Shown one piece after another: positions 6,879-13,061 of a DNA stretch of 30,643 nt. The position numbers were made by a program, and so were the translations under genes. The notes under the pieces were generated by a model that was given only the letters and a program-made list of their open reading frames with translations, ran no database searches and was not told the origin of the DNA. Source of the DNA: an uncultured Gammaproteobacteria bacterium (GTDB taxonomy: Bacteria; Patescibacteriota; Microgenomatia; UBA12405; JAHJSD01); assembly GCA_964634805.1 (NCBI GenBank), contig CAZWLF010000001.1, positions 1-30,643 of the forward strand, read 5' to 3'. The stretch's first letter is position 1. Every line of letters begins with the position of its first letter.

Positions 6879-7874
6879 ATGGCCAAAGAAACTCAAAATA
6901 TCGAAATCTCCAGAAAGACGGTTGTTTTTCTGGCTCTCTTTTTAATCTTAGCTTGGTTTTTATACCAGATAAAAGATATTTTGCTGGCCCTTTTTATCGC
7001 TCTGATTTTGGTAGGCGCTCTTAATCCTTTAGTAACCAGGTTAGAGGACAAGGGGATTGCCCGCTGGTCGGCAATTTTCTTTTTCTATTCATTAATACTA
7101 GTAGTTTTGCTCTTGGTAATCGCCGGGCTAGTTCCTCCCTTGGTTGAGCAAACCGGGCTTTTGGTTCAGGCAATTGTCAGTCTTTCCGGCAAACTTTCCT
7201 TTTTGGGCCTCTCTTCAGAAATTTTGCAATCCCAGCTTCAGAGTTTGGGCAGTTTACCTTCCCAGATAGTAAAGTTAGTTTTTTCTGCCTTCTCAAACCT
7301 AGCCGCGATCTTAGCCATTTTGGTAACCACTTTTTATCTGCTTTTGGAACATAAAAACATAGATCGTTACCTTTTCTCCGTTTTCGGCGCCAAGGGAAAA
7401 GATAAAGCCAAGGCGATAGTTGAGAGGTTGGAAGAAAAAATGGGCAGCTGGGTTCGGGCCCAATTACTTTTGATGACCATCATCGGCCTGCTTTCTTATT
7501 TGGGTTTTAGGCTTTTGGGGTTAAAATTCGCTCTTCCGCTGGCGATTTTAGCCGGGTTTTTGGAGCTGGTACCCAACATTGGGCCGACCATTGCCGCTGT
7601 TCCGGCTGTTTTGGTTGGTTTGATGGTTTCGCCTTTAGTGGCTTTTTTAACCCTGGCCTGGTGTCTTGTTATCCAACAACTGGAAAACAGTTTAATTGTT
7701 CCCAAGTTAATGCAGAAGTCGGTTGGGGTCAATCCTTTAATAACAATCTTGTCTTTGGCAGTGGGCTTTAAATTGGCCGGGATTAAAGGGGCAGTTTTGG
7801 CAGTGCCGATCTATTTGGCGGTGGAGACCCTCTGGTTGGAACGGACGTTTTTTAAAAAAACCAAAGGTGAGTAA
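6879..7874 (+). CDS. AI-2E family transporter
   Basis: Multi-TM protein with ELVPNIGP, QQLENSLIVPKLM and VNPLITILSL motifs. ATG 6879 follows AAGGAAG. Confidence 0.93.
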   Translation: MAKETQNIEISRKTVVFLALFLILAWFLYQIKDILLALFIALILVGALNPLVTRLEDKGIARWSAIFFFYSLILVVLLLVIAGLVPPLVEQTGLLVQAIVSLSGKLSFLGLSSEILQSQLQSLGSLPSQIVKLVFSAFSNLAAILAILVTTFYLLLEHKNIDRYLFSVFGAKGKDKAKAIVERLEEKMGSWVRAQLLLMTIIGLLSYLGFRLLGLKFALPLAILAGFLELVPNIGPTIAAVPAVLVGLMVSPLVAFLTLAWCLVIQQLENSLIVPKLMQKSVGVNPLITILSLAVGFKLAGIKGAVLAVPIYLAVETLWLERTFFKKTKGE

Positions 7875-8206
7875 GCCAGATTCTGTTCTTCCGAATCTTC
7901 AAAGAAACTCGGAATAAGTTCATCTATCTAATGCTCTCTACCTGGCGCTTTGCCCCAAAGTTTTGGGGGTAGAGGGAGGCTCTCGGCGCCTTTTTGAGAT
8001 TGCTCAAGGGAGGGTTGCCCGTTTCACTTCATCTACCTAAGCGTATAAGCTTTTGGCGGAATCTTCGTCACTGTGGCCCTATCTCTTCCCGACTTTTTAA
8101 AGTCAGGAGTTCCATCTTGCGGTGGAACACCTTTGCCTCCGCGAGTCTGGACTTTCCTCCCACCTAAATATGAAATTTTTGGCGGGCGAACTTTCCTGAC
8201 CTTTGG
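7861..8206 (-). ncRNA. rnpB: RNase P RNA, reduced bacterial type A
   Basis: The minus strand has GAGGAAAGUCCAGACUC (CR-I), GCCACAGUGA, GUGAAACG, GAGCAA, AGAUGAA and ACAGAAUCUGGCUUA (CR-V). P1 is CCAAAGGU/ACCUUUGG. Confidence 0.95.
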
Positions 8207-8242: not shown

Positions 8243-8388
8243 GGTTCGGTTTTATTGGCTGGAACTGGAATTATAGATAGCGCGGTTATTAGTTTCTAAG
8301 AAACGGTGAACCAGTTTTAAAACTGCCTATTGTCGTCATTTTTGAACTTTTACCCTGTCGCATCACTGGGGTGTTTAGAATCCAGCTT

Positions 8389-8444
8389 GTCATTCTGAAT
8401 TTAATTCAGAATCTATATAGATTCCGGGTCAAGCCCGGAATGAC
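8389..8444. repeat. GTCATT...AATGAC paired-hairpin palindromic repeat
   Basis: GTCATTCTGAA-tttaa-TTCAGAATCT atat AGATTCCGGG-tcaag-CCCGGAATGAC. A degenerate copy follows at about 8469-8502. Confidence 0.8.
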
Positions 8445-8546
8445 AGAAAGAACCCCGGATCACGACAGTCATCCGACGTCGCGTTAAGCCCGGAATGATG
8501 TTTAGATAAGGTTTTGAAACAAGTGCGGTGTTTTGATTTAAGGGGG

Positions 8547-8703
8547 TTAACTCAGTAAGAACCCATCTGAGGCTTGGTCTGTTTCTGGTACGACCCCCAA
8601 GCAATCCTGGCCGCATCGCCTGGTTTTAGGCCTCTGGTTGCCCAAGGGCGGCCTTCTTAGCTTGGATATTATTGCTCGGGACAGAGTCATCATATTGAGT
8701 TAA
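8547..8703 (-). ncRNA. Candidate structured ncRNA, 6S (ssrS)-like
   Basis: The ends pair (UUAACUCAAUA/UACUGAGUUAA). Stems CCCGAGC/GCUUGGG and GGCCGC/GCGGCC flank an A/U-rich bubble, and there is a GCCUAAAAC motif and a GCAA tetraloop hairpin. Confidence 0.4.
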
Positions 8704-8770
8704 AAATATTCCCAGTGTCCTTCTTGCCGCCGCCAAAAGGCTCTATCTACTTGGCCATTTTAATAACACG

Positions 8771-9832
8771 CTATTCTTCAATTTCGCTAATTTCGGAACA
8801 GGGATCATCCATTATTAATGTTTCTCCATCCGGTCCGGTAAGAAGTAAGTCCAGCTGGATCTCAGAAATATCCGGGTCGACGAAACATTCGGCAGTAGAG
8901 CAGGTTCCCAAAAAGATCTCTTTATCAAACTGGTCGTTTTGAAGATCGCCCTCTCCATAAACTCCTTTGAGAGTGCCTTCTGACAAGTAGGTCAATCGGT
9001 AGTGAATTTTTCTGAACTTTTGCCTGAGCCTTCTTAGCATAAAAAGAAATTTTTTCTTACCTTTAAACCGGCAAGTACACTTAGGCTTTTCCCAGGTACT
9101 GACAGAAACAGTTGCGGTGGCTTTCTCGTAATCAAAAAGATAAGCTTGGCTGTCCGTTACTAAAAAAGCAGAAAAGGGGATCAGAAAGATCAGGATAGTG
9201 GTTAATGTTTTTAATCCCTTTTGAACCTTTTCGGCGCTACCTTTATTTTTTACAATTTCATCTTTAATTTTTAAAATCTCGATTAAAACTATTAAAAGGG
9301 CCGGCGTTGCTATTAAAGTGATGATTCCTGCCGGCTGGCGGGTAAAGTGGATTAAATAACCCAAAAAAGGAAGGATAAAAAAGACCTCGCCGACAACATA
9401 ATCAGGCCTTAGTCCCAAGCTATCTTCATTTTCGTTAGCGTCGCCTTTGGTAATAATCAGCTCTTGGCCGTTTTTATTTTCGAACCTGACTAACCGGTGG
9501 GTGATCAGTTCTTTAGGCACAGCCGGGTTTTTAAAAGTGATAACATCGCCCGGCTGATAGCTTTCCATGGATTTGGATAAAACCAGGGACCCGGTTTTGA
9601 TCGCCGGCTCCATTGAGCCGGACTTAACCACCAGAGCTTTCAGCTTAAATTGGCCGAAAAAATCAATCTGGGGATTGAAGTTTAAAAAGGCGATACCGAC
9701 CAATCCCAAGACAATTAAAAGATAAGCGGTAGAACCGGCTTTTTGAGAAATACTTTTTAGATTCACTTTTTTCAATAAAACTTGCTCTTTTGGAACGGGC
9801 GGCAGAAGCCCGTTCCTCCAGAACTTAATCAC
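8771..9832 (-). CDS. sipW: SipW-type (S26B) signal peptidase I with C-terminal extension
   Basis: VKSGSMEP catalytic Ser, GDVITF, ITHR (His) and TKGDAN. Directly downstream of the TasA-like gene. Confidence 0.9.
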   Translation of the reverse strand: MIKFWRNGLLPPVPKEQVLLKKVNLKSISQKAGSTAYLLIVLGLVGIAFLNFNPQIDFFGQFKLKALVVKSGSMEPAIKTGSLVLSKSMESYQPGDVITFKNPAVPKELITHRLVRFENKNGQELIITKGDANENEDSLGLRPDYVVGEVFFILPFLGYLIHFTRQPAGIITLIATPALLIVLIEILKIKDEIVKNKGSAEKVQKGLKTLTTILIFLIPFSAFLVTDSQAYLFDYEKATATVSVSTWEKPKCTCRFKGKKKFLFMLRRLRQKFRKIHYRLTYLSEGTLKGVYGEGDLQNDQFDKEIFLGTCSTAECFVDPDISEIQLDLLLTGPDGETLIMDDPCSEISEIEE

Positions 9833-9837
9833 TTTCT

Positions 9838-11010
9838 TTAGCTGTCGGTATCCTCGTAAGTGATTAGGTTCTCTTCAAACAGATAGGTGCTCGGCGACCA
9901 ACTATTCATTTTCTCGCCGGTTTCATCGTAATCAGCGCAAGGAACCAGCCAGATCTTGGCTCCGGCCGGATGATTGGCATCACCGGTGTGAGGCAAATCA
10001 TAGCCAAAATTGTGAGAGCCGGACAAGGTTAAAGCGCTACCGCTTGCTAGTCCTTGATCAATCAGGGCACCCGGGTGATCTCCCGGCCATGGGTCGGCGT
10101 AGTAGATCAGACAGTATTGGATATTTTGCAGACCGGTACCGTTGAAGTCATAGTCAAAGGTCTCGCCCGAGGTGTTATATCCCAAAGTACCCGAGGCGCC
10201 GGCGATCTCTACCCAAGTAGTTGGATTTTTGCCGATCATATTAAGTGTGGCTTGCTCGCCCAGCGGACCGGGCCCGTTTAATTGGGTTGCCATCAGCTCA
10301 ATGTCAAAGGTGAGTTTATCACCCTGAGCCCAGTTGGTTACTTCCGGTTCCGGAGCATCGGGCCAAGAGCTTAGATGATAGCTCTGGACCACTTTTAGCT
10401 CGTCAGTCGGTTCCAGCTTTCCCAAGGCAATCCAGATGCCGTCGATATTGTCCAAGCGGACATGTTGGTTCTCAGTCTCAGTAATAATTGGTGTCCAATT
10501 ACTTAGAGTGACAGGCTTGCTGTCCGTGTCAGTCTCGCATCCTCCTTGCGATGGGCTGGCGCAGACATACATATCATAGAGAATGTAAGCCGCCAGATTA
10601 TTTCTGGGGACATAGTTGCCAGTACAGCAAATGGCCGCGTCAGTGCAAGGCGTCCCTCCGCCGGTCCAACTTCCTCCTCCTTCGGTACACTCCGGTTCTG
10701 ATATGACCTCGTCGCTTTGGTCGGTAATATTGATGCGCTTCCAGAGATTGATAGGATTACTGTCTACCAAGTTTTTAACAGTAAACTTAATGTATTTGGT
10801 GTAAGACGGCTTCATATCTTTTAACTCAAAGGGTTCTGAATGAAGCTCCCATGGATTTACGCCATCGACAATAATATCAATAGTCCCCGCGCCCAAGACG
10901 TTGCCAACGCTTTTTTCCTCATCGAAAAAGTAAGCTCTGGTAGCGCCGAAGGCGACGCCAACGACAGCGACAATGGTCAAAAGACTCAAGAGAATTCTTT
11001 TTTTATTCAT
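9838..11010 (-). CDS. TasA/CalY-like secreted protein with SipW-class signal peptide
   Basis: MNKKRILLSLL...GATRAYFFDEEKSVGNVLGAGTIDI, then DMKP and NWAQGDKLTFDIELMATQ. SD AGGAGGTGA sits before ATG 11010; the ORF-track start at 11088 is probably too long. Confidence 0.88.
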   Translation of the reverse strand: MNKKRILLSLLTIVAVVGVAFGATRAYFFDEEKSVGNVLGAGTIDIIVDGVNPWELHSEPFELKDMKPSYTKYIKFTVKNLVDSNPINLWKRINITDQSDEVISEPECTEGGGSWTGGGTPCTDAAICCTGNYVPRNNLAAYILYDMYVCASPSQGGCETDTDSKPVTLSNWTPIITETENQHVRLDNIDGIWIALGKLEPTDELKVVQSYHLSSWPDAPEPEVTNWAQGDKLTFDIELMATQLNGPGPLGEQATLNMIGKNPTTWVEIAGASGTLGYNTSGETFDYDFNGTGLQNIQYCLIYYADPWPGDHPGALIDQGLASGSALTLSGSHNFGYDLPHTGDANHPAGAKIWLVPCADYDETGEKMNSWSPSTYLFEENLITYEDTDS

Positions 11011-11144
11011 ATTTTTCACCTCCTTTCTTACTCTTTGGAGCATTATCTCCGGAAGAGTTTTTAGAACGCAAATTCCCATCTCTGCCAAGGCTTTTGCCTT
11101 GATGGGATCTGCCCAATAAGAATATTATTGGCAAACCAGAATCC

Positions 11145-11219
11145 GTCATTCCTAAGGGTATTTTAACGGTAGAGGGCCGAGCTTTTTAGTAAACCTGCCC
11201 GATCGGACTTTAGAATGAC
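11145..11219. repeat. GTCATTC...GAATGAC-bounded element in the tasA leader
   Basis: Same terminal heptamers as the 8389 repeat. Confidence 0.55.
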
Positions 11220-11258
11220 ATTAAAGCCAAAAGATTAGGGCAGGAGGATTTCAACCAC

Positions 11259-11289
11259 AAAAAAACCCGGCCTACTTTAAGCCGGGTTT
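11259..11289 (-). terminator. Intrinsic terminator inside the tasA-sipW 5' leader
   Basis: Minus strand CCCGGC(U)-UAAAGUAG-GCCGGG followed by U7. Confidence 0.75.
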
Positions 11290-11388
11290 GCCAAACTTAT
11301 GGATAAAAGCCACTGTTGACTCCGGAGCTTGTCAGTCTCCGAAAAGACGCCCCCTCCGTTTGTGGTTAGCTCTTCCATCTTATTTTCC

Positions 11389-11430
11389 AGTATAGGTTTT
11401 ATAAAGATCTCTGTCAATAAAGATCTTTAT
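11389..11430 (-). promoter_or_regulatory. Promoter of tasA-sipW with operator-like palindromes
   Basis: TTGACA-17-TATACT (11417 to 11389). A perfect palindrome ATAAAGATCTTTAT lies at 11417-11430 and a partial copy ATAAAGATCT at 11401-11410. Confidence 0.75.
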
Positions 11431-11519
11431 AGGAGATGAATAAATTTGGGCAATAGGGTTTACTATAAGTAAGTTAAGTTCCGCTTGGTAGAAAATGGTA
11501 TAAATAAAGCAGGAAGATC

Positions 11520-13061
11520 ATGCTTGCCAAAATTTATTCTGTTGCCAATAAAGGTCTGGAAACGATAAGAATAGAAGTTGAGGTTGATGTGGCAAAAAAA
11601 GGCTTCCCCAGTTTGCAAATAGTCGGTTTGCCCAGCAAGGCGGTCGAGGAGGCCAAGGAAAGAGTCAGAACCGCGATTGTTAACTCCGGAATAGATTTTC
11701 CCAGCCGGTCAAAAGTAATTATCAATCTTGCTCCGGCAGATGTGGTCAAGGAAGGCTCTTGCTACGATTTACCGATCGCTTTGGCAATTCTATTAGCCTC
11801 CGGCATGGTTAAAAATGATCCTTCCCTGCTTAAGGAGAGTCTTTTTTATGGCGAGCTCTCTTTAGACGGCGGCCTAAGACATACCAAGGGAGTTTTTCTT
11901 TTAGCCGCTTTTGCCAAAGAGGAAAATTTTAAAAATATTTTTGTCCCTCTGGATTCCGCCAACGAAGCCGCTTGTTTAAGCAAGCCGAAAGTCTACCCGC
12001 TTTCCTCTTTGTCTAAACTATTGCTCCACCTAAGCAGTCTTGAAAAAATAAAACCTCTCAAAAAGGTTTCGGTTTCCCAGTTGCTTAAAAACCCTGAGTC
12101 GGAATTTGATATGGCCGATGTTGTCGGTCAATACCAGGCTAAAAGAGCTTTGGAAATTGCCGCCGCCGGCGATCACAATGTTTTTATGAAAGGTCCGCCC
12201 GGTTCGGGCAAGACTATGCTGGCTCGGGCGATGACCGGAATCATGCCTCCGCTGACAGAAGAAGAATCCTTAGAAGTGACCAAGATTTACTCGTTGACCG
12301 GGAATCTTAAGCCGGGCGAATTTATTGTTAAAGAAAGACCTTTCAGGGCTCCTCATCATACCATCAGCCGGGTTGGCCTAATCGGCGGCGGCAGTAATCT
12401 TCAGCCCGGAGAAGTAAGCATGGCCCACCGGGGAATTTTGTTTTTGGATGAACTTTCCGAATTTCCAAGGAATGTGGTCGAGTCCTTGCGCCAGCCGATC
12501 GAGGACCGCCGGGTGACCATCAGCCGGGCTGTTGGCACCGCCACCTTTCCCTCCACCTTTTTAATGGTGGCGGCCAGCAACCCCTGTCCGTGCGGCTTCT
12601 TGGGCCATCCGGAGAAAGCCTGCCGCTGTTTGCCCGGAGACATCGCCCGTTATCAGCGGAAAATATCCGGTCCGATCTTAGATAGGATTGATATCCATAT
12701 TGAAGTTCCGGCCGTGCCGGCAGATAAACTGGCGGCCGAAAATAGTTTGAGCGAATCATCCAGGATAATTCGCGAAAGAGTTAGAACTGCCAGGGAGAAA
12801 CAGCTGATTAGATTTAAGGGTAGTGGCACTAAGTCCAACGGAGAGATGAAAACCGAAGAGATTAAACGTTATTGCCCTTTGACCACTGATTGTCTTAATC
12901 TCTTGCGCCAAGCCGTTTCGAGTGACAATCTTTCTGCCCGGGCTTATTTTAAAATAATCAAAGTCGGCCGTACTATCGCTGATTTAGCCGGTGATAAAGA
13001 GATAAGGATTGCCTATTTGGCAGAGGCTTTGCAATACCGGCCGAAAGAGGACAATTATTAA
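11520..13061 (+). CDS. comM: YifB/ComM family Mg-chelatase-like AAA+ ATPase
   Basis: INLAPAD, YDLPIAL, GPPGSGKT, FRAPHHT, GEVSMAHRGILFLDE, NPCPCG, GPILDRID and EALQYR. Confidence 0.95.
   Translation: MLAKIYSVANKGLETIRIEVEVDVAKKGFPSLQIVGLPSKAVEEAKERVRTAIVNSGIDFPSRSKVIINLAPADVVKEGSCYDLPIALAILLASGMVKNDPSLLKESLFYGELSLDGGLRHTKGVFLLAAFAKEENFKNIFVPLDSANEAACLSKPKVYPLSSLSKLLLHLSSLEKIKPLKKVSVSQLLKNPESEFDMADVVGQYQAKRALEIAAAGDHNVFMKGPPGSGKTMLARAMTGIMPPLTEEESLEVTKIYSLTGNLKPGEFIVKERPFRAPHHTISRVGLIGGGSNLQPGEVSMAHRGILFLDELSEFPRNVVESLRQPIEDRRVTISRAVGTATFPSTFLMVAASNPCPCGFLGHPEKACRCLPGDIARYQRKISGPILDRIDIHIEVPAVPADKLAAENSLSESSRIIRERVRTAREKQLIRFKGSGTKSNGEMKTEEIKRYCPLTTDCLNLLRQAVSSDNLSARAYFKIIKVGRTIADLAGDKEIRIAYLAEALQYRPKEDNY

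Follow-up and report, generated by a model that had tools for sequence, protein, structure and literature searches.

The promoter-proximal segment of the 5' leader of a tasA-sipW operon is probably a transcription attenuator that depends on a ribosome or on some other factor. Tentatively, we go one step further and propose that termination is relieved by ribosomes by way of a short upstream open reading frame (uORF). The segment was studied in a stretch of 30,643 nucleotides from an ultra-small bacterium of groundwater type, hereafter the window. The promoter, the terminator, the geometry of the uORF, the lack of a competing helix and the repeated occurrence of this layout across other genomes were all computed. 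The features considered below are listed by their window coordinates.

11400..11431, no strand assigned: operator-like inverted repeat TATAAAGATCT-N10-AGATCTTTATA with 11-nt arms, 100% complementary
11389..11417, minus strand: sigma-70-type promoter, 11/12 consensus matches
11277..11378, minus strand: 33-codon uORF with ATG at 11378 and TAA at 11279-11277 in the terminator loop
11323..11358, minus strand: CGGAG/CUCCG stem with a GUCUU-UUCG-GAGAC hairpin inside, from MFE folds
11259..11289, minus strand: intrinsic terminator with a 12-bp stem at 11289-11263 and U7 at 11265-11259
11253..11261, minus strand: 3' arm UUUGUGGUU of a 9-bp long-range complement, with the 5' arm AACCACAAA at 11367-11359
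11194..11247, minus strand: element directly after the terminator, from folds and motif enrichment
11011..11258, minus strand: remainder of the leader, 248 nt, moderately structured (z -2.0)
9838..11010, minus strand: TasA-like gene (Peptidase_M73) that encodes a SipW-type signal peptide
8771..9832, minus strand: SipW-like signal peptidase gene, second in the operon, with weak S24/S26 matches

The tasA-sipW locus and its promoter

The window belongs to a genome of 856 kb in 117 contigs that is 88.7% complete. The annotated TasA homologs of the window protein are from Patescibacteria/Parcubacteria, and the S24/S26 matches of the SipW-like gene are below the curated cut-offs of Pfam. The closest TasA homologs (P0001-P0010) are 57-67% identical. 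The comM/yifB gene diverges on the plus strand from 11520, and the leader sits in the tasA-comM/yifB intergenic region of 509 nt (531 nt in the search for inverted repeats). The window also encodes an RNase P RNA of class A (7857-8206, minus strand) that scores 93.1 bits; since this is below the Rfam gathering score of 100, a default cmscan misses it. As this score shows, Rfam thresholds are tight for the lineage of the window.

The promoter is composed of a -35 hexamer TTGACA (11417-11412), a 17-nt spacer and a -10 hexamer TATACT (11394-11389), with the transcription start predicted at about 11383-11380. A promoter before tasA had been proposed in the initial annotation of this DNA, and its match to the consensus is beyond chance. 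The leader, put there at about 370 nt, measures 378 nt if counted from the -10 box as far as the ATG of tasA (11010). The -35 hexamer is the sole TTGACA in the tasA-comM intergenic region, and the best promoter-like site in the post-terminator leader (11149-11122) reaches merely 8/12 matches. The location of the sole consensus promoter upstream of the terminator supports an attenuator. The inverted repeat TATAAAGATCT-N10-AGATCTTTATA encloses the -35 hexamer and is likely a putative repressor operator, which would provide a first layer of control at initiation.

Structure of the leader RNA

The terminator is positioned between the promoter and the structural gene tasA, about 125 nt into the transcript. 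G-C pairs make up 6 of the 12 base pairs of its stem, the hairpin energy is -17.3 kcal/mol, and by its sequence it would be classed as canonical and strong. Together with this terminator and its U7 tract, every other feature that the initial annotation had described on the minus strand was found in its place. The arms CGGAG (11358-11354) and CUCCG (11327-11323) enclose the UUCG hairpin (11348-11335), and both are present in MFE folds, though they are not stabler than in shuffled sequences. The pairing of UGAC (11334-11331) with GUCA (11320-11317) was recovered by direct reading of the minus strand. The perfect 9-bp repeat does not stand alone, as the intergenic region has several inverted repeats with arms of 9-12 nt. 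Part of the 3' arm of the 9-bp repeat coincides with the U tract and the rest follows it; the arm is therefore transcribed too late for the complement to influence the termination decision. Of all these features, only the promoter and the terminator exceed chance.

The 136-nt unit as a whole folds with z = -3.5 relative to shuffles, a value that stems from the terminator and the 9-bp closing helix. For the 93 nt located 5' of the terminator the value is z = -0.80, and 40 of 200 shuffles are equally stable, which means that the structure of the supposed aptamer is unremarkable. We found no antiterminator helix. The best duplex that the 100 nt upstream can form with the 5' arm of the terminator has an energy of -7.8 kcal/mol, as compared with -10.1 +/- 1.9 kcal/mol in shuffles (z = +1.2), and the mean z for a competing helix over 22 leaders is -0.22. 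Because no upstream segment competes with the 5' arm, a self-contained RNA switch is excluded, and read-through would need an outside agent.

These results bear on the possibility of a metabolite or second-messenger riboswitch, with an aptamer between 11382 and 11290 that controls the terminator. A structured-looking leader with a terminator before a biofilm-type gene invites this reading, and in other phyla genes of this type are often under cyclic-dinucleotide control. The aptamer region, however, folds no better than shuffles, nothing in it competes with the terminator, and the family and homology searches described below yielded no match. We consider a riboswitch very improbable and this reading already largely refuted.

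With its position in front of a terminator in an extracellular-matrix operon's leader, the UUCG-capped hairpin could also be viewed as the target of processive antitermination, either by a LoaP-like NusG paralog or by a cis-acting RNA of the put or EAR kind. LoaP leaders are described as a hairpin plus a terminator, and such a system would have a second NusG-family gene, usually close to the regulated cluster. The hairpin is not shared by homologous leaders, however, and PF02357 matches one gene in the 88.7%-complete genome (contig C58) and none in the window. We consider this reading very improbable as well. The conditional read-through suggested by the initial annotation therefore stands in part: the terminator is real and its layout is enriched before TasA-like genes (see below), while two of the suggested triggers find no support, the ligand for want of an Rfam match, conservation, excess structure or an antiterminator, and the NusG paralog in view of the single NusG-family gene found in the incomplete genome.

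Search for homologous leaders

A cmscan of the whole window with Rfam 15, a check proposed in the initial annotation, gave no match at the gathering score. At E <= 10 the region 10900-11600 contained chance-level matches alone, and no relevant match was found in 20 homologous loci. The proposed comparison of leaders of tasA homologs was negative as well. BLAST of the leader in 60 relatives gave no homolog, not even within the genus; nhmmer and blastn in 42 and then 121 loci, with TasA homologs of up to 63% identity, matched the Shine-Dalgarno region alone; and neither 149 genomes nor 100 TasA loci gave any match to a covariance model built on the single sequence.

A sister species of the same genus (G001) has a ComM protein that is 89% identical, and its genome is collinear with the window on both flanks of the locus. 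Where the window has 8254-11492, the sister has 465 nt (L172, 1010-1473), so that a single indel block comprises the operator, promoter and leader together with both genes, tasA and sipW. A 59-nt remnant in the sister matches window positions 8790-8848 at the 3' end of sipW, which argues for a deletion of the cassette in the sister and not for an insertion in the genome of the window. As the whole cassette was lost together, the leader appears to be tied to the operon and not to be an independent sRNA gene. The same loss leaves no orthologous leader for comparison and is in part the reason why the leader has no detectable homolog.

Two other candidates were rejected. Copies of TTTGTGGTT in loci L017/L020 and L031/L033 amount to a few short alignments in BLAST (E about 1) and were taken as chance. 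The context of L031/L033 is, as it seems to us, archaeal; their TasA N-terminus resembles that of L055, which is labeled archaeal. SRP RNA or 6S RNA was considered for the leader because neither was detected in the genome of the window. The models RF00169 and RF01854 miss the locus, a domain IV motif of the GGAAGCAGC type is absent, and the leader is unconserved within the genus. As a separate observation, SRP RNA (RF00169) was undetected in the genome of the window and in 20 relatives, 11 of which are at least 90% complete, and RF01854 and 6S RNA (RF00013) were also negative in the genome of the window. Possibly the SRP RNA of this order has diverged beyond the reach of current models.

The upstream open reading frame

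The ATG of the uORF is located 10 nt past the -10 box and is not preceded by a Shine-Dalgarno sequence. The predicted 5' UTR of 3-5 nt suggests that the uORF is probably near-leaderless and not strictly leaderless. Its end in the terminator loop, already pointed out in the initial annotation, was confirmed. The peptide contains no codon runs and has no homolog in 150 relatives.

Taken alone, the leader of the window says little about the uORF, as a uORF of at least six codons that reaches the terminator occurs in 38% of its shuffles. Across leaders, uORFs that reach the terminator are present in 21 of 33 cases, compared with 13.5 +/- 2.6 in dinucleotide shuffles. A stricter feature requires that an ATG follows the -10 box at 5-14 nt and has an in-frame stop at or in the terminator, that is from 12 nt before to 25 nt after the hairpin. 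It is found in 5/19 leaders including that of the window, against 0.75 expected, by criteria that were set after some of the cases had been seen. Like the count of 21/33, this one comes from sets 1-2, from which the hypothesis itself had arisen. A count of five was reached by one of 500 shuffles. In these five leaders the ATG is about 8-11 nt after the -10 box; loci L017 and L160, judged by eye, match the same geometry. In the out-of-sample set 3 the feature was seen in 0/4 leaders, a test of low power. The ATG alone falls 5-13 nt after the -10 box in 7/20 leaders against an expected 9% (p 0.001), with cases partly shared between the tests. The peptides are 11-33 residues long and mutually unrelated, as leader peptides should be. 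Thus, the suggestion that a ribosome on the uORF is the trigger has modest comparative support from the counts of 21/33 and 5/19, the latter not reproduced in the small out-of-sample set.

Recurrence of the layout before TasA-like genes

The order promoter-terminator-ATG was scored with one fixed scanner, which requires a promoter with at least 10/12 matches and a terminator with a stem of at least 5 bp plus a U tract. The order was found for 6 of the 62 TasA-like genes scored, with a seventh case (L069) set aside as a presumed duplicate, for 1 of 116 flanking genes of the same loci, and for 5 of 622 other genes in the genome of the window. Independent samples contained it in 4/27 class-level and 2/27 phylum-level loci. 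Overall, the layout is present at about 10% of TasA-like genes as opposed to about 1% of others. Besides tasA, the scanner flags the leaders of rpoB and greA in the genome of the window; attenuators of both genes are known in other bacteria. On contig C8, two terminators in tandem precede rpoB; on contig C109, greA is preceded by a terminator within a 110-nt leader; and contig C39 has a promoter-terminator unit of about 75 nt upstream of a tRNA.

At least 12 loci have a terminator that ends 17-50 nt ahead of the ATG, with the promoter 60-130 nt further upstream. There is no room for a second promoter between such a terminator and the gene, and therefore TasA expression in these loci must read through. 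The leader of the window is different in its dimensions: TasA leaders with a strong promoter have a median length of 209 nt and the one studied here is the longest at 378 nt, and its 248 nt between terminator and gene are unlike most homologous leaders.

This distance leaves space for a separate tasA promoter, which may be located within the 248 nt, the 8/12 site at 11149-11122 being one candidate. The preceding segment could then be an independent small gene, either for an sRNA of about 125 nt or for the mRNA of a 33-residue protein. It forms a complete promoter-terminator unit, further mini-units of this kind occur in the genome of the window, and its stop codon within the terminator is typical of many compact small genes. 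Such a gene would, however, be conserved neither by the covariance model in 149 relatives nor by the BLAST and peptide searches, and it would have been lost along with tasA-sipW in the sister species. Homologous loci with the same layout lack the space for a second promoter, and TTGACA, of which the intergenic region has one copy, is a hallmark of promoters of TasA-like genes (38/96 leaders). On this evidence an independent small gene is unlikely.

An unbiased k-mer count in 96 leaders of TasA-like genes returned cTTGACA (38), AAGGTCG (19) and CTGCCC (17) at the top. The motif (C)AAAGGTCG(A/G) is present in 19/96 leaders against 1.2 expected and once on the antisense strand. It is strand-specific and found mostly where TasA genes have no Shine-Dalgarno sequence. 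Any leader terminator precedes it, and its distance to the TasA ATG is 26-146 nt; further copies follow about 1170-1300 nt past this ATG, ahead of the next gene. The loci include L052, L054, L056-L058, L060, L061, L063, L074, L087, L106 and L203; the genome of the window shows no enrichment. The motif may act as a promoter, as a processing site or in translation. Three unrelated loci have an ORF of 56-60 residues before the TasA leader, at -358 (L025), -344 (L141) and -462 (L159) from the ATG, with the motif G-S-[VL]-E-I-x-V-x-N-x-[QE]-V-T-Q-I. It is absent from the window and seems to resemble the YezD/DUF2292 family.

The CUGCCC box and the post-terminator leader

CTGCCC was counted in 17/96 leaders of TasA-like genes compared with 3.4 in shuffles. 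In the out-of-sample leaders it occurs in 10/27 by one tally (9 by another), with a genomic background of about 11%. Typically the box is reached after 8-30 nt of transcript, and some leaders have two or three copies; carriers include L012, L013, L021, L082, L143, L146, L160, L186, L188, L194, L201 and L203. It is a possible binding site for some factor.

The box is a candidate recognition element in another explanation, according to which the leader terminator is set by a protein or RNA acting in trans, or leaks constitutively and in part so as to damp a strong promoter, with the uORF idle. Both the enrichment of the promoter-terminator layout before TasA-like genes and the lack of an antiterminator helix in the window and in 22 leaders agree with it, and in the window a CCUGCCC directly follows the terminator (11244-11238). 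However, the terminator here precedes the box instead of following it, box and layout are weakly associated (odds ratio 3.2, p 0.04), a lone 6-mer is weak evidence, and no candidate binding protein was identified. We rate this explanation as rather unlikely, next after the ribosome-dependent one.

The post-terminator leader ends in the Shine-Dalgarno sequence AGGAGGTG (11024-11017). A CCUCCU at 11247-11242, complementary to it, overlaps CCUGCCC, and in both the MFE and the centroid folds of the post-terminator leader it pairs with the Shine-Dalgarno sequence of tasA (11024-11019). CCUGCCC could alternatively pair with GGGCAGG (11200-11194). According to these folds, the pairings past the terminator may provide translational control in read-through transcripts, and the overlap of CCUGCCC and CCUCCU may point to a binding factor or to a second layer of control that acts past the terminator. 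In addition, 11285-11294, which falls on the terminator's 5' arm and flank, is a perfect 10-bp complement of 11128-11137, a site located 147 nt downstream.

Proposed mechanism

In the ribosome-dependent attenuator that we tentatively prefer, RNA polymerase would start at the near-consensus promoter bracketed by the operator-like palindrome and reach the strong intrinsic terminator about 125 nt on. Read-through into tasA would require an agent from outside the RNA, most likely a ribosome on the near-leaderless 33-codon uORF. A ribosome at the stop codon in the loop would cover the 5' arm of the terminator and block the hairpin. Transcription of the fiber gene could thereby be coupled to ongoing, fast translation. 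We infer that the terminator is functional in this organism, that the uORF is translated and that its translation relieves termination.

We further speculate that TasA-like fiber genes throughout Patescibacteria are under a shared, previously undescribed leader system, of which the window contains a long-form member; such a system is conceivable, although the chances are against it. Its parts would be a consensus promoter, a short leader, CUGCCC boxes and/or a leaderless or near-leaderless uORF, and an intrinsic terminator that has to be passed by read-through. It would couple fiber production to the translational status of the cell or to a CUGCCC-binding factor.

Patescibacteria have tiny genomes with few recognizable regulators, and the control of their host-attachment surface structures is barely known. 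Our literature search, which included a relevant review, found no natural regulatory RNAs (riboswitches, noncoding RNA, intrinsic terminators) of Patescibacteria/CPR, and nothing on TasA leaders in Patescibacteria or on SipW/TasA terminators. If the proposal is true, a leader terminator that gates fiber genes would be a cheap, protein-free layer of control. For annotation, the lesson is that a promoter-terminator pair with a nice hairpin should be called a riboswitch only if its aptamer is conserved.

Comparison with known systems

Attenuators of the trp and his type need mutually exclusive antiterminator and terminator hairpins together with runs of regulatory codons. The leader of the window likewise has a short ORF before an intrinsic terminator, but a classical trp-type attenuator was rejected, as the leader has no competing helix and the peptide no codon runs. 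With riboswitches of the c-di-GMP-I/II type it shares a terminator-containing leader before a matrix- or biofilm-type gene; unlike them, it shows no conserved aptamer, Rfam match, excess structure or switching helix.

In the greA leader of Escherichia coli (GraL), a strong promoter and a leader terminator produce abundant short transcripts, and the gene is expressed by read-through. The layout in the window is the same, and greA in the genome of the window shows it too, whereas the gene controlled is different and the sequences are not similar. In the pyrBI leader of E. coli, a ribosome that closely trails the polymerase blocks the terminator, so that read-through reports the coupling of the two. 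The leader ORF of the window also runs into an intrinsic terminator. In contrast, UTP is sensed in pyrBI by polymerase pausing in a U-rich tract and no comparable signal is assigned here; the downstream genes of pyrBI are unrelated to tasA-sipW.

Among operons of related function, sipW-bsaA of Clostridium perfringens was rejected as a precedent, since its terminator is located after bsaA and not in the leader (PMC7395162). In the pil1 operon of Streptococcus gallolyticus, a premature terminator was shown experimentally to be destabilized by the ribosome (Danne et al. 2014, PMC3894217), and the operon is ON when the stop of the leader peptide is within or beyond the terminator (PMC3894217). The two leaders have no sequence relationship. 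Slippage at a GCAGA repeat shifts the frame in pil1, whereas the leader of the window contains no repeat tract, and its uORF begins near the transcript's 5' end and lacks a Shine-Dalgarno sequence. In both cases, however, a promoter, a leader ORF, a premature stem-loop terminator and the structural genes of a surface-fiber operon follow in the same order, without an antiterminator helix, and the stop codon of the leader ORF in the window is likewise within the terminator, in its loop.
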